Numbered from the stretch's first letter, positions 3 to 20,739 are shown. The stretch is 64,000 nt of DNA from an uncultured Gammaproteobacteria bacterium (GCA_963701455.1 CAVPAE010000001.1:84841-148840), one strand, 5' to 3'. Made by a program: numbers and translations. The notes: generated from the sequence alone by a model not told the origin.

Positions 3-413
3 ATGGCGGCGCCGATCATGACGTCCATTGCCGAGGACGCCCTCAAGGCCGTACCGGACCGCTACCGGGAAGCCGCCGAGGCCATGGGTGCCACTCGCTG
101 GCAGATGATCTTCAAGACGGTGCTGCCGGCAGCAAAGAATGGCCTGCTGGGCGCGATCCTGCTCGGCGTCGGCCGCGGCTTCGGGGAAACCATGGCGGTA
201 CTGATGGCGACCGGGCATTCAATCAATATGCCGGGCAGCATCTTTGACTCGGTACGTGCCCTGACCGCAACCATCGCGGCAGAACTCGGCGAGACCGCGG
301 TCGGATCGGATCACTACCAGGTATTGTTCACCATCGGCATCTTCCTGTTCCTGATCACCTTTGTCATCAACCTTACCGCCGACCTCGTCGTACGCGGCGT
401 GCGCAAGGGGTAG
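3..413 (+). CDS. pstC: Phosphate ABC transporter permease PstC, C-terminal part (the gene starts before the window)
   Basis: The translation has the ABC permease EAA-like motif (EAAEAMGATRWQ) and C-terminal TM helices. It lies directly upstream of pstA and pstB. Confidence 0.8.
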   Translation: MAAPIMTSIAEDALKAVPDRYREAAEAMGATRWQMIFKTVLPAAKNGLLGAILLGVGRGFGETMAVLMATGHSINMPGSIFDSVRALTATIAAELGETAVGSDHYQVLFTIGIFLFLITFVINLTADLVVRGVRKG

Positions 414-1288: not shown

Positions 1289-2091
1289 CAGCAGCACAAC
1301 CCGCGCAGACAACACCGGCAGCCGGTGCTGATCCGGCTGCAATCAAGCTTGCGGTGAAGGACCTGACAATACGCTACGGCAGCACAGTCGCGCTCGGCGA
1401 TGTCAGCCTGGAGATTCGCGAGCACGAAATTTTCGGCATCATCGGCCCGGCAAATGCCGGCAAGACTTCATTCCTGAAGTCGATCAATCGCATGGACATG
1501 TTCAATTCCGGCATGCATGTCGAGGGGGAAATCCTTTTCAATGGCCGCGACGTTCGCCACCTGAAAAACGTCTATGCCCTGCGCTCGCGCATCGGCGTGG
1601 TCTTTCCCCTGCCCGTCGGATTGCCGATGACCATCTACGACAACGTCGCCCTGGCGCCGCGCCTGTCCGGCCTGAATGACAAGGCGGAACTCGACGTCAT
1701 CGTCGAACGCTGCCTGACCCGCGCCGCCCTCTGGGACGAGGTCAAGGACCGCCTGAACTCACTCGGCAGCCTGCTCTCCGGCGGCCAGCAGCAACGCCTG
1801 ACGATTGCCCGCGCCCTGTCCCAGGAGCCGGAGGTGCTGATGCTGGACGAATTCTCCATCGCGGTCGACCCGGTCACGACCATGCGCATCGAGGATGTCC
1901 TCAAGGAACTGAAGCATGAAATGACGATCATCCTGGTCACCAACCTGGTACAGCAGGCGCGACGTCTTGCCAGTCGCACCGCGTTTTTCCTGAACGGCGA
2001 GTGCGTGGAGATCGGCCAAACCGAAGACCTGTTCACCGGTGAGGTAAAGGACACCAGGACACGGGATTACGTGGAGGGACGCTTCGGGTAA
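1282..2091 (+). CDS. pstB: Phosphate ABC transporter ATP-binding protein PstB
   Basis: It has a Walker A (GPANAGKTS), an ABC signature (LSGGQQQRL) and a Walker B (LMLDEF). It is about 270 aa, which is typical PstB size. Confidence 0.9.
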   Translation: MVTAAQPAQTTPAAGADPAAIKLAVKDLTIRYGSTVALGDVSLEIREHEIFGIIGPANAGKTSFLKSINRMDMFNSGMHVEGEILFNGRDVRHLKNVYALRSRIGVVFPLPVGLPMTIYDNVALAPRLSGLNDKAELDVIVERCLTRAALWDEVKDRLNSLGSLLSGGQQQRLTIARALSQEPEVLMLDEFSIAVDPVTTMRIEDVLKELKHEMTIILVTNLVQQARRLASRTAFFLNGECVEIGQTEDLFTGEVKDTRTRDYVEGRFG

Positions 2092-2161: not shown

Positions 2162-2983
2162 TTGGACAAACCGGATACAATGATGAACACAAGCAGCCAG
2201 GCAATCGTTGAAAAGCAGCCGGATTACGCCATCCATACCGAGAAGCTGAATCTCTGGTACGGCACTTTCCAGGCGCTGTTCGATGTCGACCTTGATATCA
2301 AGAACGGCATCATCACGTCGCTGATCGGCCCTTCCGGGTGCGGCAAGTCGACCTTTCTGCGCAGCATCAACCGCATTAATGAGCGCCTCGGTTACGTCAG
2401 GATCGACGGCAAGATCAATGTCTTCGATAACAATATCTACGATCCCGGCGTGGAACTGGTGCAGGTGCGCAAACAGATCGGCATGGTATTCCAGCGCCCC
2501 AACCCCCTGCCGATCTCGATTCGCGACAATGTCCTGTTCGGCTACAACCTGCATACCCCGGGCAAGCGCACCTCGCGCAGCAAGCAGGATGACATTGCCG
2601 AGGATGCACTCAAGCAGGTGCTGCTGTGGGACAAGGTCAAGGACAAGCTGGGCAGCAAGGCCACGGAACTTTCCCTGGAAGAGCAGCAGAAACTCTGCAT
2701 CGCACGGTTGCTGCCGGTGAAGCCCGGGCTGCTGCTGATGGACGAACCCTGTTCCGCGCTTGACCCCAAGGGCACCGAGGCCGTGGAAGAACTGATCTGG
2801 GAACTCCGCGGTAAATACACCATCCTCATCGTCACGCACAATATGGCACAGGCACGGCGCGCCAGCGAGGAATGCATTTTCATGCTGATGGGCAAGGTCG
2901 TGGAGCATACCGCGACCGATAAGATGTTCGTGACCCCGGAAAAGCAGGAAACCGCGAACTATATCGAAGGTCGCTACGGCTGA
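2162..2983 (+). CDS. pstB: Second PstB-type phosphate ABC ATPase paralog
   Basis: It has a Walker A (GPSGCGKST) and a C-terminal motif (ETANYIEGRYG) parallel to the first copy (TRDYVEGRFG). The true start may be the internal Met at about 2180. Confidence 0.85.
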   Translation: MDKPDTMMNTSSQAIVEKQPDYAIHTEKLNLWYGTFQALFDVDLDIKNGIITSLIGPSGCGKSTFLRSINRINERLGYVRIDGKINVFDNNIYDPGVELVQVRKQIGMVFQRPNPLPISIRDNVLFGYNLHTPGKRTSRSKQDDIAEDALKQVLLWDKVKDKLGSKATELSLEEQQKLCIARLLPVKPGLLLMDEPCSALDPKGTEAVEELIWELRGKYTILIVTHNMAQARRASEECIFMLMGKVVEHTATDKMFVTPEKQETANYIEGRYG

Positions 2984-3065
2984 TTAAGCCGGCACGCCCC
3001 CTTGCTGCGTGTCGATCCTGCCTTACCCGACACGAACACCGGGCTGCGACCACCAAAGACAGACC

Positions 3066-3752
3066 ATGAGCACGATCCTTGTAGTCGATGATGATCCCGC
3101 GATCTGTGAAATGCTGCAGCTGGCACTCAGCGGCGCAGGTTTCAAGGTACAGGAAGCCGGTAGCGCGACTGAAGCAAGACGCGCCATCGAAGCCGCACAC
3201 CCGGACCTGATCCTGCTGGACTGGATGCTCCCGGGACAATCGGGGTACGAATTCGCCCGTGCGCTGTTCATGGATACCAGCCAGCCGGCGATCCCGATCA
3301 TCATGCTGACCGCGCGCGGCCAGGTAGAGGACAAGGTCGCCGCACTCGAGGCCGGGGCCGATGATTACGTTTCCAAACCGTTCTCTATCAGTGAACTGCT
3401 GGCGCGTATCCACGCCGTATTGCGCCGCAGCAGCCGTGACACGAGGGACGAAGTTCATGGTTTCGGTGAACTGCAGCTCGACCCGACCAGCCACAGGGTC
3501 AGCATCAAGGGCATAACCCTGGAACTGGCCCCAATGGAGTATCAACTCCTGCTGTTCTTCCTGAAACATCAGGACCGGGTCTACAGCCGCAAGGAACTGA
3601 TCAAACTGGTCTGGGGCAGCGGTACCTACGTCGAGGCGCGCACCGTGGACGTCCATATCCGGCGTCTGCGGATGGCCCTGGAACCCTCAGGCTATGACCG
3701 CCTGATCCAGACCGTGCGGGGTGCCGGTTACCGGTTTTCGGCGCTGGAATAA
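3066..3752 (+). CDS. phoB: Phosphate regulon response regulator PhoB (OmpR family)
   Basis: The receiver domain has ILVVDDD...DLILLDWMLPG, and the C-terminal winged helix has VDVHIRRLR, typical of PhoB. The start was placed at MSTILVV. Confidence 0.9.
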   Translation: MSTILVVDDDPAICEMLQLALSGAGFKVQEAGSATEARRAIEAAHPDLILLDWMLPGQSGYEFARALFMDTSQPAIPIIMLTARGQVEDKVAALEAGADDYVSKPFSISELLARIHAVLRRSSRDTRDEVHGFGELQLDPTSHRVSIKGITLELAPMEYQLLLFFLKHQDRVYSRKELIKLVWGSGTYVEARTVDVHIRRLRMALEPSGYDRLIQTVRGAGYRFSALE

Positions 3753-3935: not shown

Positions 3936-4049
3936 GGCCCGGGCCAGTCTCGGTCTCACCTTCTCCCTGTGGGCGTTCGCTGCATCCGGGCTACCGAACT
4001 GGCTGCATGGCAGTCCTGTGTTTTGCCCCGCTGGCGTATGATAACGGGC

Positions 4050-5354
4050 ATGCGAAATGCCTGGAAAGAAGAACTGGCGCTGCAGCTGGGGAGCATTCTC
4101 GTGGCTGTACTGGCCGGCACGCTCACGGGCTGGACATTACCCTGCCTGCTGGCCGGCCTGCTGGGCTACCTTGGCTGGCACCTCTATCAACTGCTGCGAC
4201 TGCCGCAATTGCTGACGCACCCGCAGGCTGCTGGACCACACCCCTATGGCCTGTGGCGCGAGGCAAGCGCTGCGATTCAGTCCCGGCTAAAGGAAGATCG
4301 CGAACGCAGCGGGGAACTCGAAAGCCTTGCGGCCGGTTTTCGCAGCACCATCAATGCATTGCCCGATGCCGTCATTACCCTGGACCCGACAGGCCGTATC
4401 ACCTGGTCAAACCCGGCGGCCGCAAGCCTGCTGGGTATTGTATGGCCAGCGGCAGCCGGCAGCACACTGACGGCACTCATCCCGGACCCGCTTGTCCGGG
4501 AATACATGGCCAGGGCAGATTTCACCCAGCCACTGGTATGCAACGCGCCGGTTGACCGGGCAAGAATCCTGTCACTCATGGTCATATCGCCGGACGATGA
4601 ATCCGGCCGGCACCTGCTGGTAGTACGGGAAATCACCCGCCAGTATCACCTTGACACGACAAAACGCGACTTCGTGGCCAATATTTCGCATGAACTGCGC
4701 ACCCCGCTGACCGTCATATCCGGTCTCGCGGAACAGCTGGGACGGGACAGCCGTGACCGCCCCGAATTGCAGCGGCCCACACAGCTGATGCAGCAGCAGG
4801 TGCAGCGCATGAACGAAATGATCGCCGACCTGCTGATCCTGTCACAGCTGGAATCGCAGCAGGAATCGGGGCACGCCGAGCCTGTTGACGTAGCAGACAT
4901 GCTTGAGACGATCGTCGAAGAAGCGCGCGCCCTGAGCGGCAGCGACCGCCATGTCGTAGCGCTGGAAATTGAATCCCCCGCCTGCCTGCTCGGCGACAAC
5001 CGGGAACTGCGCACGGCCTTTGCAAACCTGGTGACGAATGCCGTGCGCCACACGCCACCCAGGTCCGAAGTCCGGGTGCGCTGGCATTCGAACCGGGATG
5101 GCGCCAGTTTAAGCGTCACAGACAGCGGCGAAGGCATTGCGGCACGCCACATACCGCGCCTGACCGAACGCTTCTACCGCATCGATCCCAGCCGCTCAAG
5201 AGATACCGGTGGCAGCGGACTGGGACTGGCAATCGTCAAGCACATCCTTGACCGTCATGACGCGAAACTGGAAATCAGCAGCAAGGTGGGCGGTGGCAGC
5301 ACCTTCACCTGCCGCTTTCCGCCGCAAAGGGTTGTCGCTGAGACAGGAGAATAA
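4050..5354 (+). CDS. phoR: Phosphate regulon sensor histidine kinase PhoR
   Basis: It has N-terminal TM helices, a PAS domain, an H-box (ISHELRTPLT), and N/G boxes (DSGEGIAARHIPRLTERFYRID...GGSGLGLAIVKH). The start was placed at MRNAWKEE. Confidence 0.85.
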   Translation: MRNAWKEELALQLGSILVAVLAGTLTGWTLPCLLAGLLGYLGWHLYQLLRLPQLLTHPQAAGPHPYGLWREASAAIQSRLKEDRERSGELESLAAGFRSTINALPDAVITLDPTGRITWSNPAAASLLGIVWPAAAGSTLTALIPDPLVREYMARADFTQPLVCNAPVDRARILSLMVISPDDESGRHLLVVREITRQYHLDTTKRDFVANISHELRTPLTVISGLAEQLGRDSRDRPELQRPTQLMQQQVQRMNEMIADLLILSQLESQQESGHAEPVDVADMLETIVEEARALSGSDRHVVALEIESPACLLGDNRELRTAFANLVTNAVRHTPPRSEVRVRWHSNRDGASLSVTDSGEGIAARHIPRLTERFYRIDPSRSRDTGGSGLGLAIVKHILDRHDAKLEISSKVGGGSTFTCRFPPQRVVAETGE

Positions 5355-5540: not shown

Positions 5541-6806
5541 TCAGGTAAATATGCCCTTCAGGGTGAAGAAGAACAGCGCGGCCAGAATACCGCCTGCTGG
5601 CAGTGTAATCACCCAGGACACCACGATGCCGCCGATGACCCGCAGGTCAATGGCGCCGATGCCGCGTGCGAGACCGACGCCGATGACCGCACCCACCGCG
5701 ATGTGCGTGGTCGATACCGGCAGGCCGGTGCGTGAGGCCAGCACGACCGTGGCAGCTGCTGCCAGGGTTGCGCAGTAGCCGCGACTCGGGGTCAGCTCGG
5801 TGATATTGGTGCCGATGGTCTGCATGACCCGGTAGCCCATGGTCGCCAGACCCACGACGATACCGGTACCACCAAGCACCAGGATCCACAGCGGCAGCGC
5901 CGCCTTCTGCGCCACTTCGCCACCCGACTGGACGATACTGACCACCGCGGCCATCGGGCCGATGCCGTTGGCGACATCGTTCGAACCGTGCGCAAATGCC
6001 ATGGCACAGGCCGTAAACAACATCATGGGAACGAACACCTTCTCCACGCTCGCATAGTGGAAGTCCTTGTCGGCACCCGGATCTACCACCACCCGCCGGA
6101 TCATCAGCCAGCCGACAAAGGCCAGCGCCAGACCAAACAGCCCGGCCACGACGAAACTCATATTAGCCGAAAGCTCGATATTCAGGTGTTTCAGCCCCTT
6201 GAACAGGGTAACCAGGGAGATGGTAAAGCCGACCAGGAACACGTAGGCGGGCCCCCAGCGCTTGGCACTCTCGAACGGGTGCTCCGTATCCAGAATCAGG
6301 CGGCGGATGCTCAGCATCAGCACGAAGGCGATGACCCCGCCGATCAGCGGCGACACTACCCAGCTGGCAGCGATCTGCGACACCTTGCCCCATGCCACGG
6401 CATCGAGACCGATACCCGCGACCGCAAAGCCGATAACGGCACCCACGATGGAATGCGTGGTCGAGACCGGCCAGCCGCGGGTGGTGGCGATCATGAGCCA
6501 GACGGCTGCCGCCAGCAGCGCCGCCAGCATGCCGAAGACCAGTATCTCCGGACTGTTGACAATGGAGGCTGGATCGATAATTCCCTTGCGGATGGTCGCG
6601 GTAACATTGCCGCCGGCAATGAAGGCACCGGCGAACTCAAAGATCGCGGCAATCAGGATCGCCTGCTTGATACTGATCGCGCCCGAACCGACCGAGGTAC
6701 CCATGGCATTGGCGACGTCGTTGGCGCCGATACCCCAGGTCATGTATACGCCAAATACAACCGCCAGTGCGATAAAGACGAAGCCGTATTGAGTTATGAT
6801 TTCCAT
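5541..6806 (-). CDS. pit: Inorganic phosphate transporter, PiT family
   Basis: The 421-aa protein carries the duplicated PiT signature GANDVANA(M/I)G near both termini. Confidence 0.85.
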   Translation of the reverse strand: MEIITQYGFVFIALAVVFGVYMTWGIGANDVANAMGTSVGSGAISIKQAILIAAIFEFAGAFIAGGNVTATIRKGIIDPASIVNSPEILVFGMLAALLAAAVWLMIATTRGWPVSTTHSIVGAVIGFAVAGIGLDAVAWGKVSQIAASWVVSPLIGGVIAFVLMLSIRRLILDTEHPFESAKRWGPAYVFLVGFTISLVTLFKGLKHLNIELSANMSFVVAGLFGLALAFVGWLMIRRVVVDPGADKDFHYASVEKVFVPMMLFTACAMAFAHGSNDVANGIGPMAAVVSIVQSGGEVAQKAALPLWILVLGGTGIVVGLATMGYRVMQTIGTNITELTPSRGYCATLAAAATVVLASRTGLPVSTTHIAVGAVIGVGLARGIGAIDLRVIGGIVVSWVITLPAGGILAALFFFTLKGIFT

Positions 6807-6901: not shown

Positions 6902-7582
6902 CTAGCGCGCGATCAGCAGTCGCAGCCGATCCCCGACTTTTTCTGCATAATCCGCCAGGTCGCCGACCCACTCTATGAGCTGGTACCACATCATGACCGA
7001 GACCGGCTTCATCTCGTCCTCATGCTCGAACAACTGCCGTGCCAGTTTGATGCCGAGTTCGTCGGTGTCGTCCTCGATCAGGTTCAGCTTCTCCACCATC
7101 TCCTCGACGCGATTCGCCTCGCGACCGCGGAAGCCCATGGCCAGCAATTCATCAAGTTCCTCGATGATCTGCGCCGATTGCTCGCAGGTATCCAGACAGC
7201 GGCGCGCCAGCGTCAGCATGTCCTCCTGCATGAATTCCGGTATCTCCATGCGCCGCTCGATCAGCATGCCCGCGATATCCTGCGCGGTATCCGCGATGGA
7301 ATCCTGCATTTGCAGGACCTCCAGCAGGTCGCGCCGGTCGACCGGCATGAACAGGCTCTTGGGCAAGGCCCCGCGCATTTCATTCTTGATACGGTCGGCC
7401 TCGGCCTCCCGCTCGAATATCCTGTTTTTGCAGGCTGTCACCCTGTCCTGGTCGCCCGCGGCAAGGGCCTCGAACAAGGGTGGTACTTCACGCGCGCATT
7501 CCAGTACCACGCGCATGTGTTTTTGCAGGGCTGAGAACGGAGACTTGCCGAACAGACTCCCGAATGGATTGGTCGATGACAT
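6902..7582 (-). CDS. DUF47 / TIGR00153-family protein (PhoU-like Pit accessory protein)
   Basis: It is 226 aa, helical, and has the PhoU-like motif WYQLIEWVGDLADYAEKVGDRL. It lies immediately upstream of pit on the same strand. Confidence 0.75.
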   Translation of the reverse strand: MSSTNPFGSLFGKSPFSALQKHMRVVLECAREVPPLFEALAAGDQDRVTACKNRIFEREAEADRIKNEMRGALPKSLFMPVDRRDLLEVLQMQDSIADTAQDIAGMLIERRMEIPEFMQEDMLTLARRCLDTCEQSAQIIEELDELLAMGFRGREANRVEEMVEKLNLIEDDTDELGIKLARQLFEHEDEMKPVSVMMWYQLIEWVGDLADYAEKVGDRLRLLIAR

Positions 7583-7648
7583 AGTTGCTTATCCCTGGTG
7601 ACGTCCGCGATTCTGCGGGGGCGGACTGATTATGACTAACGGAATCTA

Positions 7649-7666
7649 GTAACAAAACCGTAACAA
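7649..7666 (-). promoter_or_regulatory. Candidate Pho-box-like direct repeat (GTAACAA-N4-GTAACAA, 11-bp period) upstream of the DUF47-pit operon
   Basis: Two 7-bp direct repeats are separated by 4 bp, which is the architecture of PhoB boxes, although the sequence differs from the E. coli CTGTCAT consensus. Confidence 0.25.
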
Positions 7667-7782: not shown

Positions 7783-8199
7783 TTATCTGACGACACGTGG
7801 CAGACGCTGCATGGCACGCCTGAGATCGTCCCTGCGCAAGCGCTTGAGGGCATCCTTGAGACTCAGCCACTCCCGCTCCCGGTCGGTCTCGTCCCACTTG
7901 CGGTGGACCTTCCTGACCTTCATGGCGTAGATCTGGACCGTGCAGACATCGCCCCACTTGCGGTGCTTGTATATGCCCAGCAGCTTGTTGTGCACGTCGC
8001 CCTGCACCCCGGCTTCCTCAAAGGCCTCCTTGGCGGCAGAGGTCCGTGGATTGAGATCAGACTCGATGACACCCTTGGGGATGATCCAGCGTCCCTTGTT
8101 GCGCGAGGTAATCAGCATAACCTCGATCTTTCCCTGCCTTTTGCGATAAGGGATGACACCGGATTGCTTGTAGTTGCTGGCGCATACTTTCCTGCCCAT
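7783..8199 (-). CDS. NUDIX hydrolase
   Basis: It has a Nudix box (GVIESDLNPRTSAAKEAFEEAGV). It is 138 aa and lies directly downstream of the PPK2 gene. Confidence 0.7.
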   Translation of the reverse strand: MGRKVCASNYKQSGVIPYRKRQGKIEVMLITSRNKGRWIIPKGVIESDLNPRTSAAKEAFEEAGVQGDVHNKLLGIYKHRKWGDVCTVQIYAMKVRKVHRKWDETDREREWLSLKDALKRLRRDDLRRAMQRLPRVVR

Positions 8200-8200
8200 G

Positions 8201-9778
8201 CTATTTTTCTGCCAGCGCGGCTTCCAGCCGCTCGCAGAATGTCTGAATCACCTTGATGCGGGAAAAGCGCTTGTCATTACCCTCGACCAGCACCCAGGGA
8301 GAACTCTGGGTACTGGTATGTTCCACGATGTCATTGACGGCCAGTTCATAGTCCTCCCATTTTTCCCGGTTGCGCCAGTCTTCATCGGTCAGCTTCCATT
8401 GCTTGTGCGGAGTCTGCTCCCGCAACCTGAAACGCTCCAGCTGTTCTTCCTTGCTGATATGGATCCAGTACTTCAGCAGCACGATGCCGTGTTCGGTCAG
8501 CTGTTCCTCGTAGTCGTTGATCTCCGCATAGGCACGACGCCATTCCGGCTCGGTGGCAAAACCCTCAATACGCTCGACCAGTACGCGCCCGTACCAGCTG
8601 CGGTCAAAAATACTGATGCGTCCCGCCCGGGACAGGTGCCGCCAGAAGCGCCACAGGTAATGCTGCGCCCGTTCCTCGTCCGTCGGCGCGGCGATCGGAA
8701 TCACCTGGTAGTGCCGCGCATCCAGGGCAGCCGTAATCCTGCGGATCGCCCCGCCCTTGCCTGCCGCGTCGGCCCCCTCGAACACCAGGATCGCGGAGAC
8801 CTTTTTCTTCAGCGCCTTGCGGTGCAACTGGTTCAGTTTTGCCTGCCATTGCTGCAGCTGTTTCTTGTAGTCCGCCTTGGTGACATGCAGGGACATATCC
8901 AGCCGTGACAGTACGGTTGCGACCGGCAGTGGCGGCAACGGGTTTCCCTCAGCATCAGCCTCCGTGGCGGACTCCACTGGTGCCGGCGTATCCAGCTGTT
9001 GCTGTTGCTGTTGCTGCTGCTGCTCGATGCGCTGCAGATGCTTGCGGATTTCATCCCGCACGATGGTGCCGACGGTCAGGCTGCGGTAACACGGGTCCAT
9101 GCCCTCGACGATAGTCCAGGATGCCGTGCCTGTGCTGGTGCGCATGATGATGCGCTCCGCGGCGGACTCGAAGCGGTCGTAGATATGCCAGTGGTCCCAG
9201 TCACGCGGGGTGACCCGCCACTTGGTGAGCGGGTCCTTCTCGAGTTTCTTCAGGCGCTTCTCCTGGGCATCGTGGCCGAGATGCATCCAGAACTTGAGTA
9301 TCAGCACACCGTCGTCGGCCAGTGCCTTTTCGAAGGAGAGAATGCGGTCCAGCTGCTCGTTGAAGGTCGATTCGTCCGCTTTCTCGTAAACACGATCCAG
9401 GATCGGCTGCGAGTACCAGGCGCTGAGGAACAGCCCGATGCGTCCCTTCGGCGGCAAGTGACGCCAGAAACGCCAGTATTCGGGACGTTCCCGCTCCTCG
9501 TCGGAAGGATCGTCGTAGGCCGTGGTCAGCAGCCAGCGCGGGTCCATCCACTCATTGAGGATGTTGACGGTATCGCCCTTTCCGGCCCCGTCGACGCCGG
9601 CAAACAGGATAATCACCGGGCAACTGCCGGCCTCACGCAGTTGTTGCTGCACCTCGAGGAGTTCCTGCCTGAGCAGCGGTTCCCGCTCCCGGTACTCGGC
9701 TTTCGATACCTTCTGCCCGAGTTCTGCTGTTCTGAACATGCCGTACTCCTTCATTTTGTGTCTTTCTCCCCCGACCAC
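8201..9778 (-). CDS. pap: Polyphosphate:AMP phosphotransferase (two tandem PPK2 domains) with an internal poly-Q linker
   Basis: It is 525 aa with two PPK2-like halves. Both have P-loop-like motifs (FAGVDGAGKG and FEGADAAGKG) and WxxxW motifs. The linker between the halves is QQQQQQQQQ. Confidence 0.8.
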   Translation of the reverse strand: MVGGERHKMKEYGMFRTAELGQKVSKAEYREREPLLRQELLEVQQQLREAGSCPVIILFAGVDGAGKGDTVNILNEWMDPRWLLTTAYDDPSDEERERPEYWRFWRHLPPKGRIGLFLSAWYSQPILDRVYEKADESTFNEQLDRILSFEKALADDGVLILKFWMHLGHDAQEKRLKKLEKDPLTKWRVTPRDWDHWHIYDRFESAAERIIMRTSTGTASWTIVEGMDPCYRSLTVGTIVRDEIRKHLQRIEQQQQQQQQQLDTPAPVESATEADAEGNPLPPLPVATVLSRLDMSLHVTKADYKKQLQQWQAKLNQLHRKALKKKVSAILVFEGADAAGKGGAIRRITAALDARHYQVIPIAAPTDEERAQHYLWRFWRHLSRAGRISIFDRSWYGRVLVERIEGFATEPEWRRAYAEINDYEEQLTEHGIVLLKYWIHISKEEQLERFRLREQTPHKQWKLTDEDWRNREKWEDYELAVNDIVEHTSTQSSPWVLVEGNDKRFSRIKVIQTFCERLEAALAEK

Positions 9779-9906
9779 GCCTGCGCACAGAAATTTCGCG
9801 GTTCAAGCCCTTGCTGAAAGCAACCGGAACATTAAACGATAATTATCATTTATACTAATGCTGATGTTAAGCACTTTGGTGCATAGCGCGAAAAGCGGGG
9901 GCAAGC

Positions 9907-11109
9907 ATGGCGAAGATTCTGGTTGAGGATCCCGAGGAACATACCAAGGTCCCGTTTTTACGCGGTATCCTGATCCGTTCCCTGCAGGACGCGGGGTTGT
10001 CCTTCAAGGAGGCGTACCGCTTCGCCTCGGATATCCGTTCCGACCTGGGTGATGCCCCGCTGATCACCAACCACGCCCTGCACAAGATGGTACTCAAGCG
10101 CCTGCAGGCAACCCGGGGAGACGCGATAGCCAACCGCTACCTGGAACATAACCTGCCCTATACCATCATGGTGGAACAGCGCGACGGTCACCTGACGCCC
10201 TTTTCCAGGCTGGAATACCAGCATTGCCTGGAGACCATCGGTCTGGAAGGCAACGAGGCAAGCAATTTCGTTGCCCTGCTGCACAAGCACCTGACCGACA
10301 GGCACATCGAGAAAATCACATCACGCCGCCTGGGGCTGCTGACCTACCGATACCTGCGCCAATCCCGTGAACTGGGGCCTGCCGTTGCCCAGCGCTGGCT
10401 GGTCTGGCGGGACTTCGCCCACAGCGGCCGCCCGATAATATTCCTGATAGGCGGCACGGCGGGATGCGGCAAAAGCACCACGGCCACCATGCTGGCCAAC
10501 CGGCTGGATATCGTCCGCACCCAGTCGACCGACATGTTGCGCGAGGTGATGCGCACCATGCTGCCAAAACAGCTTATGCCGGTCCTGCACACCTCGTCCT
10601 TTACCGCCTGGACGGCGCTGCCCGGCCATCCCGAAAAAGGCGCCGAGGTTTCGGACGCCCAACTGGTCCATGGTTATCTCAGCCAGGCGGACCTGCTCTC
10701 GGTGGCCATCGGGGCGGTTATCCAGCGAGCCCTGCGCGAGCGCGTTTCGCTGATCCTGGAAGGTGTCCATATCCATCCGGGGTTCGTGGAAAAACTCAGG
10801 GAAACGCTCGGCCCGAGCGGTGACGAGGTTCTGGTCCCCGTCATGCTGGGTGTACTGAAACGCAAGTGGCTGCAGGGCAGGATCCGCGGCCGCAGCACCA
10901 ACGTCCCGCAACGACGGTCGGAACGCTATCTCCAGCATTTCGATGAGATCTGGCGGCTGCAGTCACACCTGCTGTCCGAAGCCGACCGCGCCAATATCCC
11001 CATCGTGGTGAACAGCGACAAGGACAAGGTCTTTAGCGAAATCATGCGTATTACGATCGAGAAGCTGCAGCAGGATTTCACCGGATCCGCACAGGAAGTC
11101 TTTTCATGA
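9907..11109 (+). CDS. 2-phosphoglycerate kinase-like protein (N-terminal ATP-cone-like domain plus P-loop kinase)
   Basis: It is 400 aa with a Walker A (GGTAGCGKST). The overall layout matches archaeal-type 2PGK homologs, but function is inferred from family resemblance only. Confidence 0.55.
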   Translation: MAKILVEDPEEHTKVPFLRGILIRSLQDAGLSFKEAYRFASDIRSDLGDAPLITNHALHKMVLKRLQATRGDAIANRYLEHNLPYTIMVEQRDGHLTPFSRLEYQHCLETIGLEGNEASNFVALLHKHLTDRHIEKITSRRLGLLTYRYLRQSRELGPAVAQRWLVWRDFAHSGRPIIFLIGGTAGCGKSTTATMLANRLDIVRTQSTDMLREVMRTMLPKQLMPVLHTSSFTAWTALPGHPEKGAEVSDAQLVHGYLSQADLLSVAIGAVIQRALRERVSLILEGVHIHPGFVEKLRETLGPSGDEVLVPVMLGVLKRKWLQGRIRGRSTNVPQRRSERYLQHFDEIWRLQSHLLSEADRANIPIVVNSDKDKVFSEIMRITIEKLQQDFTGSAQEVFS

Positions 11110-12377
11110 CACAGCGCAAGGGCCTGATCATTATACTCGACGGGCTGGGTGACCGGCCCATTCCGGGTCTCGATGGCGCCACCCCGCTGGAAGCGGCGCA
11201 CACGCCAAACATGGATGAGCTGGTCTCCAGGGGTCGCTGCGGACTGGTTGATCCCCTGTATCCGGGGGTGCCGGTCAGCACCCATACCGGAGCCGGTGTT
11301 TTATTTGGCATCAATACCCGCGATGCCTATAACCTGCCGCGGGGGCCGGTCGAGGCGGCCGGCACCGGTCTGCCGGTAATGCCCGGCGATATCGCCCTGC
11401 GCTGCAACTTTGCCACGCTCAGGCCGGATGCAGACGGCCTCAAGATCATCGACCGTCGTGCAGGACGCATCCACGAAGGTACCCGCGAGCTCGCGGAGGC
11501 GCTGCAGGAAATCACACTGGAAGACGGATTTTCAGCCAGTGTGCGGCCGGCTACCGGGCACCGTGCCGTGATGCGCCTGTCGGGGCCGGGACCGTTGCCG
11601 GTTGTCAGCGACACGGACCCGGGCTCCGGCGCACAAAACGGCCACGTGCTTGCCTGTCATGCCCTGGACATGGATAACCCGCTGGGAGAACAGACGGCAA
11701 ACGCGATCAATACATTTATCCGGCTCGCCTACGATCGCCTCAAGGAGCACCCGGTAAACCGGAAACGCCTCCAGCAGGGACTCCCGCCCGCCAACGGCAT
11801 CATTACCCGCGGCTCCGGGAGTATCAGCAAGTTACACAACATCATTCACCATATCGGGCTGAGCACTGCCCTCGTTGCCGGCGAAAGTACCATTATCGGG
11901 CTCGCGCAGCTGTCCAACTTCGCGGTCATCTGCAAGCCCGAGTTCACCGCGATGTCAGATACCGACCTCGAGTCAAAGGTTGCCGCCACCCTGACGGCAT
12001 TGCAGGATCATGACCTGGTATTCCTGCACATCAAGGCACCGGATATTTTCTCCCATGACTGCGACCCGGAGGGGAAAAAGGCCTTTCTGGAAAAGGTAGA
12101 CGCCGCACTTGCCCCGCTGCTGCTGCAGGACATCGTGATCGGCGTGAGTGCCGACCACTCGACAGACAGCAACTCCGGCCGCCATTGCGGCGACCCGGTA
12201 CCCTCAATACTGTGCGCTCCGGCAGGTCGCCGCGACCTGTGCCGTGAATTCGGGGAAACGCAGTGTCTGTCCGGCGGACTGGGCAGAATCCCGGCCCGCG
12301 CCCTCCTGCTGACACTGCTCGACGAAATGGGTCGCATGAAGAACTACAGCACCCAGGACAGTTCGTATTTTATTTAA
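11106..12377 (+). CDS. apgM: ApgM-type cofactor-independent phosphoglycerate mutase (alkaline-phosphatase superfamily)
   Basis: The N-terminus has ILDGLGD, which is typical of archaeal-type iPGM. It is 423 aa and overlaps the upstream kinase gene, which suggests translational coupling. Confidence 0.7.
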   Translation: MTQRKGLIIILDGLGDRPIPGLDGATPLEAAHTPNMDELVSRGRCGLVDPLYPGVPVSTHTGAGVLFGINTRDAYNLPRGPVEAAGTGLPVMPGDIALRCNFATLRPDADGLKIIDRRAGRIHEGTRELAEALQEITLEDGFSASVRPATGHRAVMRLSGPGPLPVVSDTDPGSGAQNGHVLACHALDMDNPLGEQTANAINTFIRLAYDRLKEHPVNRKRLQQGLPPANGIITRGSGSISKLHNIIHHIGLSTALVAGESTIIGLAQLSNFAVICKPEFTAMSDTDLESKVAATLTALQDHDLVFLHIKAPDIFSHDCDPEGKKAFLEKVDAALAPLLLQDIVIGVSADHSTDSNSGRHCGDPVPSILCAPAGRRDLCREFGETQCLSGGLGRIPARALLLTLLDEMGRMKNYSTQDSSYFI

Positions 12378-12543: not shown

Positions 12544-12993
12544 TCACGCAACGTTTTTGTGGTCTCCACTGAGTTCACGGATCAGCGGGTAGAGCTTTTC
12601 CGTCTCCATCTGGATGCGCTGCAGCACCAGTTCGAACATCTCCTCGGAATCCTTCAGAAAGCGGTCATGCTCGGCAATCGCCAGCGTCTCGCCGCGCTTC
12701 TTGGGACACCACTCCTTGGTGTAGGACTGCATGATGCGCTTGATTTCCTGGGAACCCGACATGAAATTGCGCGCAAGCTTCTGGATATCGTGATCGTTAT
12801 GCGACAGCAATTTGCTGTACATGTTGGTGTCCACCAGGTCGATGTGCTCCTTGACCTTGCCCATGTAGCGGTAGAACAACTCACAACAGGTCCCGGTATC
12901 GCACATGGAGCGTTCCTTGAACAGATACAGCAGGACGTTGGAGAGTTCAGTGATGGTGTGGTTCTGGGTATGTAATTCGTCGTAGGTAATCAT
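12544..12993 (-). CDS. Hemerythrin-like (HHE cation-binding) domain protein
   Basis: It is a 149-aa helical protein with His/Glu/Asp spacing consistent with a hemerythrin-like fold. The match is weak. Confidence 0.45.
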   Translation of the reverse strand: MITYDELHTQNHTITELSNVLLYLFKERSMCDTGTCCELFYRYMGKVKEHIDLVDTNMYSKLLSHNDHDIQKLARNFMSGSQEIKRIMQSYTKEWCPKKRGETLAIAEHDRFLKDSEEMFELVLQRIQMETEKLYPLIRELSGDHKNVA

Positions 12994-14950: not shown

Positions 14951-17900
14951 CTACCAGCCGCAGGTACTGCCGGCCTTCAGCTCTGACACGTAGGTCCACA
15001 CCTTCTCGGCGACACGACCCTTGACCAGGTGCTCCTTCCACTCCTTGCCGTCCGAGCCACTGCACTGCACATGGCTGCTCTCGTCGCCGTGGCAACCGCG
15101 GCAGACGGTAGTGAGCGGATTCACACCGTTATAACCGATATCCGGGTTCGGTTCGGGATCGCCGAACACGTGCCCTGTCTTATCGATTTCCGCCTTGTCC
15201 ATGGCGCCACGAGAGACACGGCCCTTGTCGGTATGCTCCAGCCATTCTTCCTCGTCGATCTTAACCTTATCCCACTCGTCACCGTGGCAATTCTTGCAGA
15301 CCTCGTTTCTGGGACTTGCCTCTTCCGTATAGGTGTGCATCCAGCTCACCGCGCGGTCGAAGTTGCTGCCGATGCTCTGGCCCTTGTACCTGAGGTTGTC
15401 TACCCAGGTCGGGATGCCGTTGCTGTCCACAGCGTGACAGGTACCGCACTTCAGCGGACCGTGTGAACCGTCGTGGTTCAGGCTCGCCGCCTGCGCATAC
15501 GACGTGGTGTCGATGTCCGGCGTCACCGGATACAGACCGTGGATCGACTCATGACAGCCCTGACAGCTGATGTCCTGGTGACCACGCGAGTAACGCATCA
15601 GGCTGGCCTTCTGCGGGTAGTTGAACGGCGGGAATGCATTGATGTTGCCGCTCTGCTCCACGTAAGGCGCCGCGTGACAGTCCGCACAGTGCGGTTCGCC
15701 GGCTGACAGCCAGTGATCCCGACCGTCGGTCGCTGCCGAGAACGGCACCGGTACCGCCGCCGAGTTGCTCAGCTTCGCCTGCGCCGCCGCCACACAATCC
15801 TGCGTGGTGCAGAAATCCATGGCATTTACACTGAAGTCGCCATCACCGTCCAGCGAACCGCAGATCTGGAAGTCCGATCCATTCTGGCCGTCACAATCCG
15901 GTCCCGGTACGCCGAACCCGGTCGAGCAGCTCTGGCCCGGCAGGGCCACTTCGATGGTCGCCACGTTGCCGTCCATCGCAGGAATGCCGGGGTCGCCGAA
16001 CAGCACGCCCACGTGGGCACACAGCCCCGGATCACTCTTCCAGATGTCATGAGTGGTATCACCGGTACGCGAACCGCCGTCCGGGAAGGTCGGGTTGACC
16101 AGCGGATCTGCCGGATCCAGCCACGACTTCACCTGATTCATGGTGTAGCTGGTGTTCAGCGCTGCATTCACCGCAAGCCGCACATCGTTCAGCGTTCCGC
16201 CTGCCGGCTCACGTACGTGACCCGCATCACCCGGCCTGGCATGCACCAGGCTGTCCACGTCCTCGGCCTTCCACATTTCCTGACCAAACTGCTGGTGACA
16301 GTTGGTGCACCACAGGCCGCCGTTCACGCTGTTGCCGTCGTTGAACACGTTGTCCGACAGCCACGTACCCACTGGATTCAGATGCACCGGTGTCTCCGCA
16401 CCGTCCGTATCCTTGCCCGGGTTGGAGTGCACGTCACGGCCGACGAAACAGCCGCCGTTGGCATCGCGGTTATCCGTAGTGGCGTAGAAGTTCTCGCCAG
16501 TCAGCGTGATCGGGTAGCCGCTCATGTCGCCGCTGGAACGGTGCGCCGGGTGACAACCCTGACAACCACCACTACGGCCCTCACCGTCGCCAAAGACGAT
16601 GTCACCACCCTCACTGACGCCCTTATGGTTATTGTGAATCGCCTCCGTCACCGGCGGGATGACCTGACCGCCATTGTGAGTCGCCGACTTCACTACCGCA
16701 ATCACGTTATCCGCATGACACTTCTGGCAGATCACACTCTCGTGGCCCAGACGCGTGTTCTGCGGGGCTACCCCACCCACATCCGCGCCAGGATAGTTGT
16801 CCGTGAAACTCGTGCCGTGTTCCACGTCATGACCGTGCAGCATACTGATGGCCGCACTCTTCAGACGTGAGTACCAGTCCGAGTCACCGGCGCCTGTATC
16901 GATGCCGTAGTAGCCGCTCCAGAAGTTGTACTCCTGTTGTACCAGCGCCCACTGGGCCGGATCATCGTTCGGCGTGTTCGGGGTAGCCGGCGCATTCGAG
17001 TGACAACGCTCGCAGTTCGGAATGTCGATCGGTGCCGTACCGAAGCCGATCACCGGGTCGCCATTGCTGTCCAGCACCGGTGTACCGTTGCTGCCGCCGT
17101 CGTAGTGGTACATCTGCGCCTTCATCGCCACGAACGGCCGTACCGAGTCCTCGTCCACCAGTCCCGGATCACCGAAGAAGTCGATGCTGTCCTCGAACGG
17201 CGTTAGCGGCAGGCCCAGGGCCTCCCAGATATTCGGCGAGGTCAGCATGACCGGCAGGTTCTCCAGCACCTTCATCTGCGTGAACACCACCGTGCCATGC
17301 TCGCCTGAGTAGGTCAGCACGTTGCCGTTGGAGAAACCACCACAGTCGTTGGGCGCACCACCCGTGGTAACCGGACCCATCGGGTGCAGCGCAGGACCGC
17401 AGTCGTTCGGGTAGGCCACCATGCCATCAACACCCAGGCGGATCTTGTCGGCATCCGCCGAGGTACCCGTGCTGTTACTGCCTTCCAGGTCCTCGTAGAA
17501 GTACAGGTGGTTCCACACCGCGTTCTGGTAGTTGTCGGTGGGATCGGTCAGATCGCCGTCACCCAGCACTACATCGTCGGCACCGTTGTAGGGGCCGGTT
17601 ACGAAGGTACCGTCCGGGTTCAGCGCCGCTGAATCGAACGTGGTATTCCAGGCCATCAGCGAGTTGCCCTCGACCGCACTGATCAGCGTACTGGTCTGCG
17701 GCTTGCCATTGCCGTCATTGCGCGGCTGTGCGTCGTGCCAGTACTTCAGCACGTACTTCTTGAAGTTGTTGCTGCCATCCAGCGACTTGTCGCGCAGCAC
17801 CGTCTCGCGGCCGAGACCGTCCTTGCCAACATTCGGGTCGCCTTCCAGCAACGCGGGGAAAGAAAAGTCTTCGTCCTCGTGCCCACCCGGGCCTGCAGGC

Positions 17901-18466
17901 TTGACTACCTGAGCCAGGATGGAGTTATACACCGGCAGCACGCAGCAGTAGGCGAACTCGAAACCGGTGCAGTGCATGCCCAGCTCGTAGTTCATCATGA
18001 TCTTGAAATCAGTCTGCGTCGGGAGATCCACCTGTGGCGGAGGCAGCGTGGTCGTGGTCGTCACCGCGGCCGTTGTCGTCGTCGTTGACGTGGTCGTGGT
18101 CGTTCCTCCGCCAGCACAATTGGACGGGGCGTTATTCACATCCCTGAAATCTGTCTTGCCATCGAACTGTACAGCCTTAACCTTGCAGGGTACGGACGAA
18201 GTACTGGAATAGGATTTGCTCACACTCCACTTGCGGTAACGGCAACTGGTGTCGGTAGCGACATATGCACCGCTGTCAGCATTGGTCACGGTTGCACTGA
18301 AATTGCGGCTCCTGTCGCAACTGCCATTGACACTGAGCCTCCCACTACTCCAGCTGGCCGAGTCGATGTCAAAAGAAGCCGCTGCGTTGCCCGAAAAGGC
18401 AAGCACGCCCGCCAGCAGCACCAGCAAGCCGCTACAGCGGGTCCACATTGATAGTTTTCGTCTCAT
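14951..18466 (-). CDS. Giant nonaheme c-type cytochrome, paralog 1 (signal peptide, Ig-like N-domain, poly-Thr linker, 9 CxxCH)
   Basis: The 1186-aa ORF has nine CxxCH motifs (CERCH, CQKCH, CQGCH, CTNCH, CADCH, CQGCH, CGTCH, CKNCH, CRGCH). The linker is TTTTTSTTTTTAAVTTTTTLPPP, followed by the conserved motif NYELGMHCTGFEFAYCCVLPVYNSILAQVVK. The start was chosen at MRRKLSMW, which follows a GGAGG RBS. Confidence 0.85.
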   Translation of the reverse strand: MRRKLSMWTRCSGLLVLLAGVLAFSGNAAASFDIDSASWSSGRLSVNGSCDRSRNFSATVTNADSGAYVATDTSCRYRKWSVSKSYSSTSSVPCKVKAVQFDGKTDFRDVNNAPSNCAGGGTTTTTSTTTTTAAVTTTTTLPPPQVDLPTQTDFKIMMNYELGMHCTGFEFAYCCVLPVYNSILAQVVKPAGPGGHEDEDFSFPALLEGDPNVGKDGLGRETVLRDKSLDGSNNFKKYVLKYWHDAQPRNDGNGKPQTSTLISAVEGNSLMAWNTTFDSAALNPDGTFVTGPYNGADDVVLGDGDLTDPTDNYQNAVWNHLYFYEDLEGSNSTGTSADADKIRLGVDGMVAYPNDCGPALHPMGPVTTGGAPNDCGGFSNGNVLTYSGEHGTVVFTQMKVLENLPVMLTSPNIWEALGLPLTPFEDSIDFFGDPGLVDEDSVRPFVAMKAQMYHYDGGSNGTPVLDSNGDPVIGFGTAPIDIPNCERCHSNAPATPNTPNDDPAQWALVQQEYNFWSGYYGIDTGAGDSDWYSRLKSAAISMLHGHDVEHGTSFTDNYPGADVGGVAPQNTRLGHESVICQKCHADNVIAVVKSATHNGGQVIPPVTEAIHNNHKGVSEGGDIVFGDGEGRSGGCQGCHPAHRSSGDMSGYPITLTGENFYATTDNRDANGGCFVGRDVHSNPGKDTDGAETPVHLNPVGTWLSDNVFNDGNSVNGGLWCTNCHQQFGQEMWKAEDVDSLVHARPGDAGHVREPAGGTLNDVRLAVNAALNTSYTMNQVKSWLDPADPLVNPTFPDGGSRTGDTTHDIWKSDPGLCAHVGVLFGDPGIPAMDGNVATIEVALPGQSCSTGFGVPGPDCDGQNGSDFQICGSLDGDGDFSVNAMDFCTTQDCVAAAQAKLSNSAAVPVPFSAATDGRDHWLSAGEPHCADCHAAPYVEQSGNINAFPPFNYPQKASLMRYSRGHQDISCQGCHESIHGLYPVTPDIDTTSYAQAASLNHDGSHGPLKCGTCHAVDSNGIPTWVDNLRYKGQSIGSNFDRAVSWMHTYTEEASPRNEVCKNCHGDEWDKVKIDEEEWLEHTDKGRVSRGAMDKAEIDKTGHVFGDPEPNPDIGYNGVNPLTTVCRGCHGDESSHVQCSGSDGKEWKEHLVKGRVAEKVWTYVSELKAGSTCGW

Positions 18467-18604
18467 TTCCTGTTCCTCCCAAGGATGGCTACCCTTCCCC
18501 CAATTGCACAAATTTACACATGCCGTACTTGAATACTGAAAGCATCATCTCATATATGGGAAGTTATTCCCATAGGGATAAATTTCCCAACTACAGCAGC
18601 AAAG

Positions 18605-18619
18605 GCAAATTTCGCTCCA
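18605..18619 (-). promoter_or_regulatory. Candidate sigma54 -24/-12 promoter for cytochrome 1 (minus-strand TGGAGC-N5-TTTGC)
   Basis: The GG and GC elements have canonical spacing and lie about 130 nt upstream of the start codon. A TGYCAG-type repeat array lies 100-170 bp further upstream. Confidence 0.35.
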
Positions 18620-18710
18620 GAACCCTTCCAGCAACATAAGTAGATGTACTTACGGCAGAATCCGGTAATTCAGTAATTCCAGACATACTGATGCTGCCCC
18701 TGATGACATC

Positions 18711-18770
18711 TTTGTCTGCCAGATTTGTCAGTATTGCCTGCCAGATATGGCAGACATAACGGGATGTCAC
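18711..18770. promoter_or_regulatory. Array of TTGTCTG/TTGTCAG/CTGCCAG/TGGCAG/ATGTCAC motifs (candidate enhancer/UAS)
   Basis: Five hexamer-like repeats plus the near-palindrome CTGCCAGATATGGCAG. The motif family is the same as the arrays upstream of cytochrome 2 and of the EBP gene. Confidence 0.4.
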
Positions 18771-19009
18771 TCCAACGCCAGCAACGTCAGGATACCGGGC
18801 GGCAACAGCGTGTCGCCGTGACGGACCGCGCAGAGGGGGAAACGGAGCACGGGATGAATGCCGGAATATCAATGACCGGCATCCATACGGAACGCTTGAC
18901 CTGGCGAAATGCAAACTGCCTGACCTGTGTTCAGGCCGGGCAGTTTATCAAGCAATGGTTCGCGGGCGTGTTGCCCGCGTGATGTTGCAGTATCAGAATA
19001 TCGCTTCGG

Positions 19010-20552: not shown

Positions 20553-20656
20553 GATTGTTTTTTCCGAAGTCAGGTGAACGATATATCCTAATATACAAAT
20601 AGACTGTTGCGCCAATGGCGCCGCAGAACGGTAGCGTTCGAGGTCAAAATAAAGTC

Positions 20657-20689
20657 AAAAAAAAGGGAGAGGAAGTAGCTTCCTCTCCC
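20657..20689 (-). terminator. Intrinsic terminator downstream of cytochrome gene 2
   Basis: On the minus strand there is a GGGAGAGGAAG-CTAC-TTCCTCTCCC hairpin followed by T8. Confidence 0.75.
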
Positions 20690-20739
20690 AAACTTTGAGT
20701 CAGCTACCGGGGAGAAGTTCCTCCCCGGTGGCGTCTTTC

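Follow-up and report, generated by a model that had tools for sequence, protein, structure and literature searches.

We analysed a 64,000-nucleotide stretch of DNA from an uncultured Gammaproteobacteria bacterium (GCA_963701455.1, CAVPAE010000001.1:84841-148840; hereafter the window), in which a gene for a kinase of the 2-phosphoglycerate kinase (2PGK) family is followed directly by a gene for a metalloenzyme that resembles the archaeal-type phosphoglycerate mutase (ApgM). The pair lies next to an operon for polyphosphate (polyP) metabolism, and the evidence that these genes belong to one module is genomic and structural-predictive throughout. The genes and features of the locus, in window coordinates, are the following (aa, amino acids).

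7783-8199, minus strand: NUDIX hydrolase (PF00293, E 2e-10), last gene of the PPK2 operon
8201-9739, minus strand: two-domain (class II) PPK2, polyphosphate:AMP phosphotransferase (PAP), 512 aa (TIGR03708, 696.4 bits against a cut-off of 547.65)
9740-9906, no strand assigned: divergent promoter region between PPK2 and kinase (consensus scan)
9907-11109, plus strand: 2PGK-family kinase, 400 aa (NF003259, 250 bits, E 2.8e-74)
9907-10164, plus strand: ATP-cone 1 of the kinase, residues 1-86 (structural model)
10165-10419, plus strand: ATP-cone 2 of the kinase, residues 87-171 (Pfam PF03477)
10420-11106, plus strand: P-loop kinase domain, residues 172-400
11106-12377, plus strand: ApgM-like metalloenzyme, 423 aa (TIGR00306, 342.5 bits against a cut-off of 320)

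An earlier note on this DNA had assigned the four genes to these families, and profile searches with Pfam and NCBIfam bore the assignments out. Translational coupling of the kinase and the ApgM-like gene, also proposed there, is seen in the overlap of the kinase stop with the ApgM-like start as ATGA (11106-11109), with AGGAAG eight bases upstream. The coordinates and strands of the open reading frames (ORFs) agree as well with a PAP-NUDIX operon, its two genes one base apart, that diverges from the kinase-ApgM pair over 167 bp. The start of PPK2 was placed at ATG 9739 and not at GTG 9778, and the sequence MFRTAELG... at this gene start is kept in relatives; PF03976 matches the protein as two stretches.

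The kinase was compared with curated family models and with solved structures. Residues 91-391 aligned to positions 9-296 of the 306 in the 2PGK model NF003259 (250.2 bits, E 2.8e-74), and residues 4-396 to positions 90-479 of the 492 in the second 2PGK model, NF008994 (245 bits, E 1.2e-72). The matches to the mevalonate-3-phosphate 5-kinase model (NF008996, E 1.7e-17) and to adenylate kinase models (E 7e-5, P-loop only) were far weaker. A sequence search of the PDB with the kinase gave no match even at E 1, and the family has neither a solved structure nor a ligand complex. An AlphaFold2 model, built on an alignment of 88 diverse sequences, reached a pLDDT (predicted local distance difference test score) of 95.9. 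In Foldseek searches, the top match of the predicted N-terminal 170 residues was the tandem-cone NrdA of P. aeruginosa (5im3), and the predicted catalytic domain was most like adenylate, UMP/CMP and gluconate kinases, with identities of 9-20%. Adenylate and UMP/CMP kinases were the closest solved folds, with template modelling (TM) scores of 0.56-0.68 normalised to the target. The first ATP-cone, which was delimited here from the structural model, was caught by Pfam in the homologues P0128 and P0143. The two predicted N-terminal cones would put the kinase under adenine-nucleotide control. Two variants from gammaproteobacterial metagenome-assembled genomes (MAGs; P0168 and P0195) carry an N-terminal GAF domain instead of the first ATP-cone, which may be a further sign of a regulated node.

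The kinase family is modest in size, with 182 representatives at E ≤ 1e-30 among 1.8 billion cluster representatives. Its ~300-aa forms are archaeal (Thermococcus, Heimdallarchaeota and Methanofastidiosia) and are named 2-phosphoglycerate kinase by homology, and its 400-aa forms are bacterial. When the characterised 2PGK of Methanothermus fervidus was sought by cluster names among the representatives, only the homology-annotated entries from these three archaeal groups were found. Both forms have in common a set of residues that are invariant or at least 90% conserved (G183, G188, K189, D209, R212, R216, S230, S231, Q260, R274, E278, G286, H288, R329, R336 and Y341). Because this set includes five arginines (R212, R216, R274, R329 and R336) together with D209, S230/S231, Q260 and H288, it would suit a small polyanionic substrate, and the pattern suggests a chemistry shared by the bacterial and archaeal forms.

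To place the kinase in its genomic setting, one genome per species was scanned; relatives were found in 476 species, and the best 80 (49-92% identity) were examined. Almost all of these came from uncultured Gammaproteobacteria from sediments, and the set includes MAGs labelled Thiogranum, Sedimenticola, Chromatiaceae, Ectothiorhodospiraceae and Olavius Gamma 3 symbiont, as well as a near relative of the window with 92% kinase identity (locus L001). For the PPK2 count, 75 loci had enough upstream sequence; 77 were usable for phosphate genes within four genes of the kinase, and all 80 for its partners. An orthologous two-domain PPK2 (55-89% identity) was divergently adjacent to the kinase in 39 loci, or 38 of the 75 with enough upstream sequence, usually at a spacing of 103-158 bp. 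At least one phosphate-homeostasis gene (pst, PPK2, Pit, PhoU_div, Na/Pi transporter, CHAD or phoBR; Pi, inorganic phosphate) lay within four genes of the kinase in 68 of the 77 loci, with the following counts for single types.

PPK2: 38 of 77 loci
pst genes: 30 of 77 loci
Pit: 22 of 77 loci
PhoU_div: 19 of 77 loci
Na/Pi cotransporter: 9 of 77 loci
CHAD: 8 of 77 loci

The recurrence of the kinase beside PPK2 and beside Pit is far beyond chance. Recurrence next to PPK2 genes in other genomes had been named beforehand as a check on the kinase-ApgM pair, and for the kinase the outcome was positive. The NUDIX hydrolase behind PPK2 passed no curated bacterial NCBIfam model. In a phmmer search of the PDB it matched human DIPP1 (E 2.7e-14; DIPP1-3 about 1e-14), yeast Ddp1 (1e-7) and then Ap4A hydrolases. 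DIPP1 and Ddp1 hydrolyse inositol pyrophosphates, diadenosine polyphosphates and polyP (PMC8064635). The genes that recur near the kinase thus encode polyP-consuming enzymes and Pi transporters.

We further asked what kind of protein the ApgM-like gene encodes. It passes the subfamily cut-off of TIGR00306 and falls below that of the equivalog NF003104 (358.6 bits against 489), and its closest PDB entry is 2zkt from P. horikoshii (241 bits). In place of the Ser-Asp of the S-D-x-A-H motif, the protein carries the nucleophile dyad Thr59-His60 (11280-11285). Thr was present in 100% and His in 96% of 45 members of its clade (T-H-T-G), whereas 20 canonical sequences, including 2zkt, had Ser in 95% and Asp in 80%; the Thr-His clade has also lost the canonical His that stands four residues further on. 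A metagenome scan with a profile of kinase-linked ApgM proteins yielded 80 loci, and all 55 of these at 44% identity or more have the Thr nucleophile, followed by His or rarely by Gln or Ala (T-H-[TS]-G). Outside the dyad, the residues D12, D16, R79, R99, R117, R118, R121, H152, R153, R221, R235, H308, K310, D313, D318, K324, D350, H351 and H360 are identical in the clade and in canonical ApgM. This retention of the metal ligands and of the Arg, Lys and His positions argues for a phosphoglycerate-like ligand.

The Thr-His clade is tied to the kinase. Of the 49 Thr-His-clade metagenome loci with enough upstream sequence, 46 have the kinase as the immediately preceding gene, in the same orientation and frequently overlapping by 4 bases, compared with only 2 of 24 canonical ApgM relatives with upstream sequence, and both of these two carry the T-H motif. 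In addition, natural kinase-ApgM fusions were found as three cluster representatives (P0127, P0128 and P0269, with lengths of 819, 841 and 795 aa among them), each of them in two or three independent assemblies, three Acidobacteriota MAGs included. Because of the upstream kinase in 46 of 49 loci and the natural fusions, the Thr-His protein appears to be a dedicated partner of the kinase and not the glycolytic mutase of the cell. The earlier note had likewise set the pair apart from glycolysis, and the near-constant attachment of the clade to the kinase supports it on this point.

The opposite possibility is that the ApgM gene is a housekeeping mutase of glycolysis whose synteny with the kinase is incidental. 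It does pass the TIGR00306 subfamily cut-off, and one distant kinase relative lies beside pentose-phosphate and glycolytic genes. We nevertheless rejected this reading as improbable in the extreme: the kinase accompanies the Thr-His clade and hardly ever canonical ApgM, the fusions occur in three lineages, 71 of the 80 related species keep the kinase without ApgM at the locus, and PPK2, exopolyphosphatase (PPX) and Pit recur beside it far above chance.

The kinase and ApgM do not, however, form a conserved unit as a pair across the genomes. The conserved core is the kinase: of its 80 genome loci, only 9 have ApgM as the next gene, and 32 have a His_Phos_1 protein of ~215 aa, either adjacent to the kinase or after PPK2. 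The His_Phos_1 superfamily contains the cofactor-dependent phosphoglycerate mutases and many phosphatases. ApgM and His_Phos_1 were found together in none of the 80 loci, where ~3.6 would be expected if they were independent (p ~0.007, uncorrected), and none of the 55 Thr-His ApgM metagenome loci had a His_Phos_1 partner. On the tree of the kinase, ApgM and His_Phos_1 loci are intermingled, and partners have therefore been swapped repeatedly. Only a few bases separate a kinase paralogue from a His_Phos_1 gene in one distant lineage.

His_Phos_1-bearing loci showed particular arrangements. One contig (L085) carries two kinase paralogues with an insertion sequence (IS) element between them; the first stands after PhoU_div-Pit and before a CHASE histidine kinase, and the second has a His_Phos_1 gene immediately after it. 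In the His_Phos_1-type loci L028-L047 and L064, the next genes downstream, for a dimeric dUTPase_2-family protein and a CitMHS/TrkA_C anion transporter, are conserved (arrangement KIN+ HisPhos- dUTPase_2- CitMHS-).

The close association with PAP raises the possibility that the kinase is a nucleotide kinase, which would take the ADP made by PAP from polyP and AMP, or another nucleotide, onward, as in the known route of PAP and adenylate kinase (ADK) that leads from polyP to ATP. PAP is indeed divergently adjacent in half of the related species, the closest solved folds of the catalytic domain are adenylate and UMP/CMP kinases, and ATP-cones bind adenine nucleotides. The PAP/ADK system of Acinetobacter and polyphosphate-accumulating organisms is built in a similar way, from a class II PPK2/PAP and a P-loop kinase of adenylate-kinase-like fold, near Pit, which in that system is used for Pi efflux. 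Unlike ADK, however, the window kinase belongs to the 2PGK family and keeps company with phosphoglycerate-mutase-type partners that have no role in PAP/ADK. In sequence it resembles adenylate kinase models in the P-loop only (E 7e-5; the 2PGK match reaches E 1e-74), and its identity to solved nucleoside monophosphate kinases is 9-20%. A nucleotide kinase would also leave the ApgM-like partner, the fusions and the alternation with His_Phos_1 unexplained, and we consider this reading very unlikely.

Taken together, these results make it quite probable that a functional module of kinase and partner exists and that it is linked to polyP and Pi genes. For its chemistry we favour, tentatively and without being fully persuaded of it as a whole, a make-and-break cycle based on phosphoglycerate. 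The kinase would convert ATP and 2-phosphoglycerate (2-PG) to 2,3-bisphosphoglycerate (2,3-BPG), or to a very close analogue. The partner would act on the same phospho-acid, either by supplying 2-PG from 3-phosphoglycerate (3-PG) or, as we hold more likely, by removing phosphate from the bisphosphate, because the alternative partner is phosphatase-like and the acidic residue beside the nucleophile has been lost. Kinase and partner would in this way load and unload a bisphosphorylated C3 pool, the size of which would follow the adenylate status. PolyP would be broken down alongside by PAP (AMP + polyP to ADP), by the DIPP-like Nudix enzyme and, in a relative, by PPX, and the module would tie an organic pool of phosphate to the mobilisation of polyP and to the adenylate status of the cell. 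The PAP-NUDIX operon and the kinase module are probably co-expressed from the 167-bp divergent region that they share, and the shortness of this spacer suggests co-regulation of the divergent genes. The earlier note had proposed a route from 3-PG through 2-PG to 2,3-BPG that acts as a phosphate buffer; both the route and the buffer role are what we infer from homology below curated cut-offs and from analogy.

Several observations weigh against this phosphoglycerate-based cycle. The kinase scores under both 2PGK equivalog cut-offs (250.2 against 343 bits for NF003259, and 245 against 603 for NF008994), and its family includes other specificities, namely the mevalonate-3-phosphate 5-kinase of NF008996 and Lpa1, a proposed inositol monophosphate (InsP1) kinase. 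The altered Thr-His dyad may be the sign of a different reaction. As 2-PG is already a glycolytic intermediate, there is no obvious need for a dedicated mutase to feed the kinase. The His_Phos_1 partner falls short of every NCBIfam equivalog and is nearer to broad phosphatases such as cobC (82 bits) than to true cofactor-dependent phosphoglycerate mutase, and neither partner lies within four genes of the kinase in about half of the related loci. The 80 kinase loci, moreover, come from related lineages, and their synteny is partly inherited rather than independently selected. Kinase relatives at 33-44% identity are found in unrelated contexts or beside pentose-phosphate and glycolytic genes, and two of the three fusion lineages are without phosphate genes nearby; the third, P0127, has an exopolyphosphatase (Ppx-GppA) on one side and Pit-PhoU_div on the other in two MAGs. 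The phosphate linkage on which the earlier note relied is thus not universal, and more distant relatives stand in unrelated contexts or in those of central carbon metabolism.

The absence of a Pho box upstream of the kinase and PPK2 adds to these points. In the window, the four genes adjoin pstCAB-pstB2, phoBR and pit/phoU_div, and the pst/phoBR/pit setting noted earlier is thereby confirmed. The neighbouring features are listed below.

3-413, plus strand: pstC, partial (Pfam BPD_transp_1/ABC_tran searches of the pst genes, as for the next three)
419-1288, plus strand: pstA
1282-2091, plus strand: pstB
2162-2983, plus strand: second pstB (pstB2)
3009-3752, plus strand: phoB (Response_reg and Trans_reg_C)
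3969-5354, plus strand: phoR (TIGR02966 PhoR, 390 bits against a cut-off of 334)
5541-6806, minus strand: pit/PHO4 (PF01384, 399 bits), in an operon with phoU_div
6902-7582, minus strand: phoU_div (PF01865, 195 bits), in an operon with pit
7647-7664, plus strand: Pho-box-like direct repeat TAGTAAC-AAAA-CCGTAAC (13/14 against CTGTMAY-N4-CTGTMAY), in the spacer between phoU_div and NUDIX
12544-12993, minus strand: conserved 149-aa ORF, convergent with the ApgM-like gene (no Pfam or NCBIfam match)

Pho boxes were sought with an E. coli-type consensus and then with a degenerate scan calibrated on the pstS and phoB promoters of relatives (two CTGTMAY half-sites, 11-bp period). The scan detected its positive controls, namely the boxes of pstS and phoB in relatives and the repeat at 7647-7664 of the window. 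The spacer between kinase and PPK2 (9740-9906) held no Pho box, with scores of 9-10/14 on its kinase and PPK2 sides, and the promoters of relatives showed no clear enrichment (scores of at least 12 in 10 of 68 kinase promoters and in 18 of 400 random windows). A consensus scan of the spacer returned instead a candidate kinase promoter, with a -35 element GCAACC (9820-9825), an 18-nt spacer and a -10 element TATCAT (9844-9849), and a candidate PPK2 promoter, TTAACA...GATAAT (9870-9842, minus strand). A sigma70-like arrangement of -35 TTAACC and -10 TATYAT is kept in relatives, consistent with a promoter function for these elements. Since there is no Pho box and a sigma70-like -35/-10 is present instead, membership of the kinase and PPK2 in the Pho regulon is not supported. 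The repeat at 7647-7664 fits the consensus better on the plus strand (13/14, reading antisense into NUDIX) than on the phoU_div strand (12/14, TTGTTAC-GGTT-TTGTTAC), and its orientation relative to phoU_div is ambiguous.

Some of the points above would fit the same architecture working on another substrate, with the phosphoglycerate names serving as family labels. Candidates are phosphoglycolate or glycerate derivatives, a phosphoserine-like compound, inositol monophosphate and a mevalonate-phosphate-like acid. Besides the kinase scores under the 2PGK cut-offs, the other specificities of the kinase family and the change to Thr-His, this reading can draw on the ApgM superfamily, which has members that are not mutases; the models for PhpG and for a proposed homoserine kinase match the window ApgM at 190-205 bits. 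The Nudix neighbour, too, is like hydrolases of inositol pyrophosphates and polyP. However, the similarity of the kinase to the 2PGK model is much above that to any other kinase model, the Thr-His clade retains essentially all other canonical ApgM residues, arginine clusters included, and the two superfamilies in which phosphoglycerate mutases occur each supply one of the partner types. Another substrate is therefore, in our view, unlikely, although it deserves serious attention.

The second question concerns the role of the product, which could be a signal rather than a store. The pair would then adjust how much of a regulatory bisphosphate is present; this compound would report on adenylate or phosphate status and, in turn, govern the breakdown of polyP or the transport of Pi. 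The kinase bears a heavy regulatory load, with two ATP-cones here and GAF-fused variants elsewhere, and it is paired or fused with a phosphatase-type enzyme, which is the classic layout of a switch for a signal metabolite. The module also adjoins regulators and transporters (PhoU_div-Pit, pst and phoBR) as well as polyP enzymes, and a C3 bisphosphate pool would be a poor bulk store of phosphate compared with polyP. Two well-known systems have this design. In PFK-2/FBPase-2, a P-loop kinase and a histidine phosphatase set the level of fructose-2,6-bisphosphate, and in Vip1/Asp1 (PPIP5K), a kinase and a histidine-phosphatase-like domain set that of inositol pyrophosphates. As in the module described here, kinase and phosphatase-type domain are encoded together or are fused, the latter being of the histidine phosphatase superfamily there and of the alkaline-phosphatase superfamily here; the kinase domains are not homologous beyond the P-loop fold class, and the likeness is an analogy of design and not family membership. 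The Vip1/Asp1 product controls phosphate homeostasis (PMC11323792).

By this analogy, a bisphosphorylated C3 acid might act as a second-messenger-like cue that gates polyP mobilisation (through PAP, PPX and the DIPP-like Nudix) and Pi flux (through Pit/PhoU_div and Pst), an idea that we regard as improbable. The cue would be made according to adenylate status through the tandem ATP-cones and removed by the partner; that prokaryotes would have in it an equivalent of fructose-2,6-bisphosphate or the inositol-pyrophosphate/SPX system seems to us equally doubtful. Any receptor or target would be hypothetical, and phosphatase action of the partner is putative. The genomic evidence for a signal is the same as that for a store and does not discriminate between them; a buffer would have a precedent in the store of cyclic 2,3-diphosphoglycerate (cDPG) proposed for a methanogen (PMC1224877). 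We give a signalling role a low probability, and the pool of the phosphoglycerate-based cycle that we favour may be either a phosphate/energy buffer or a regulatory signal.

Several known systems resemble parts of the module. The archaeal 2PGK (EC 2.7.2.16) of the cDPG pathway, which in Methanothermus fervidus consists of 2PGK and cDPG synthetase, is homologous to the window kinase over the full length of the archaeal model, with ATP-cone and P-loop kinase domain, and has the same invariant residues. The window kinase differs from the archaeal ~300-aa forms in its ~30-36% identity, its extra N-terminal ATP-cone and its scores under the curated cut-offs, and the setting of the bacterial kinase, with ApgM-like or His_Phos_1 partners and a polyP/Pi neighbourhood, is undescribed for archaeal 2PGK. 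No candidate for cDPG synthetase was present among the conserved kinase neighbours, although no search aimed at this enzyme was made. cDPG itself has been reported only from thermophilic methanogens (PMC10690619), and as a product made via 2PGK it was proposed to store carbon and phosphate in M. thermautotrophicus (PMC1224877). Canonical ApgM (P. horikoshii, 2zkt) belongs to the same fold family as the window protein and has the metal-ligand and Arg/Lys/His positions in common with it, whereas the window clade has Thr-His for Ser-Asp and stands nearly always directly after the kinase or fused to it. Plant LPA1/OsPGK1, of the same kinase family, is connected genetically with the storage of phosphorus (PMC6417671, PMC4844318), and rice that overexpresses its 2PGK homologue, OsPGK1/Lpa1, has more total phosphorus in the seed (PMC4844318). 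However, the plant protein has only weak 2PGK homology, a putative substrate and no ApgM or PPK2 context.

The components of the module (2PGK, ApgM, PPK2 and Nudix) are thus known, but by sequence one defining feature fails for strict membership of both the 2PGK and the ApgM family. A 2005 comparison listed COG2074 and COG3635 as "archaeal" genes that are both common to Thermus and Deinococcus, and said no more of them. The literature on 2-phosphoglycerate kinase that we searched describes no bacterial polyP- or Pho-linked module and no kinase-ApgM cassette. Nor does this literature describe a bacterial kinase of three domains, a Thr-His clade of ApgM that is attached to it or fused with it, a His_Phos_1 protein in alternation with ApgM, or an association with PAP, PPX and Pit.

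How bacteria decide when to draw down polyP, and how this is coupled to energy charge and intracellular phosphate, is poorly understood beyond PhoU/PstB and (p)ppGpp. The window locus and more than 100 related loci define a compact, testable module in uncultured sulfur-cycling and sediment Gammaproteobacteria, and such sediment lineages are generally linked to the release of sedimentary phosphorus. Should the product prove to be 2,3-BPG or an analogue of it, the module would be the first dedicated bacterial biosynthetic route to this metabolite and would give it a role. It would then join the cDPG phosphate store of methanogens and the link of Lpa1 to seed phosphorus in plants with the polyP islands described here, and the Thr-His ApgM clade would gain a function distinct from glycolysis.

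Other proteins recur around the kinase. The His/Cys/Glu-rich 149-aa ORF at 12544-12993 has the same position in L001, L004 and L088-L092; it is always convergent and just past the ApgM-like gene, or in L004 just past the kinase. This ORF, whose membership is uncertain, may belong to the module without having been recognised. A ~207-aa P-loop protein with weak AAA_33/ABC P-loop matches only, which is not present in the window, recurs by Pit/PhoU_div near the kinase (L008, L014, L018, L026, L049, L072 and L080). Pairs of a CHAD-domain protein and a ParA-like ATPase lie a few genes from the kinase in L019, L020, L038, L059, L070, L071, L076 and L077; CHAD proteins are generally tied to polyP granules, and these pairs are a further sign of the polyP theme.

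The pst genes of relatives also showed particular arrangements. The tandem of pstB and pstB2 is found upstream of the kinase in many relatives, and in L024-L047 the kinase follows the second pstB at ~110-220 bp, with a conserved promoter-like block, TTTGCATATC.GTCATTCCG.CATAAAATAG, in the spacer between pstB2 and kinase. At L032:5346-6425, and in equivalents in L024, L036 and L045, a PhoU gene stands between pstS and pstC; PhoU of this type has a C-terminal extension weakly like a low-molecular-weight phosphatase/ArsC-type domain (TIGR02691, E 5e-4).

An Rfam scan of the window gave no match. Elsewhere in the window, two paralogous clusters, at 14951-22837 and 38986-44481, each encode a multihaem cytochrome c of ~1200 aa and, after it, a PPIC-type peptidyl-prolyl isomerase; smaller multihaem cytochromes are also present in the first cluster (20740-22837), and CcmF is encoded at 50205-52208. 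The gene content of these clusters, together with CcmF, suggests a capacity for extracellular electron transfer. Finally, the stretch at ~23600-33100 has a lower GC content (0.50-0.54, against ~0.60) and a run of minus-strand genes, among them those for a methyltransferase, a FemAB/GNAT-like protein, a family 2 glycosyltransferase and a YfhO-like membrane protein, and it is probably an acquired island for cell-surface polysaccharide.

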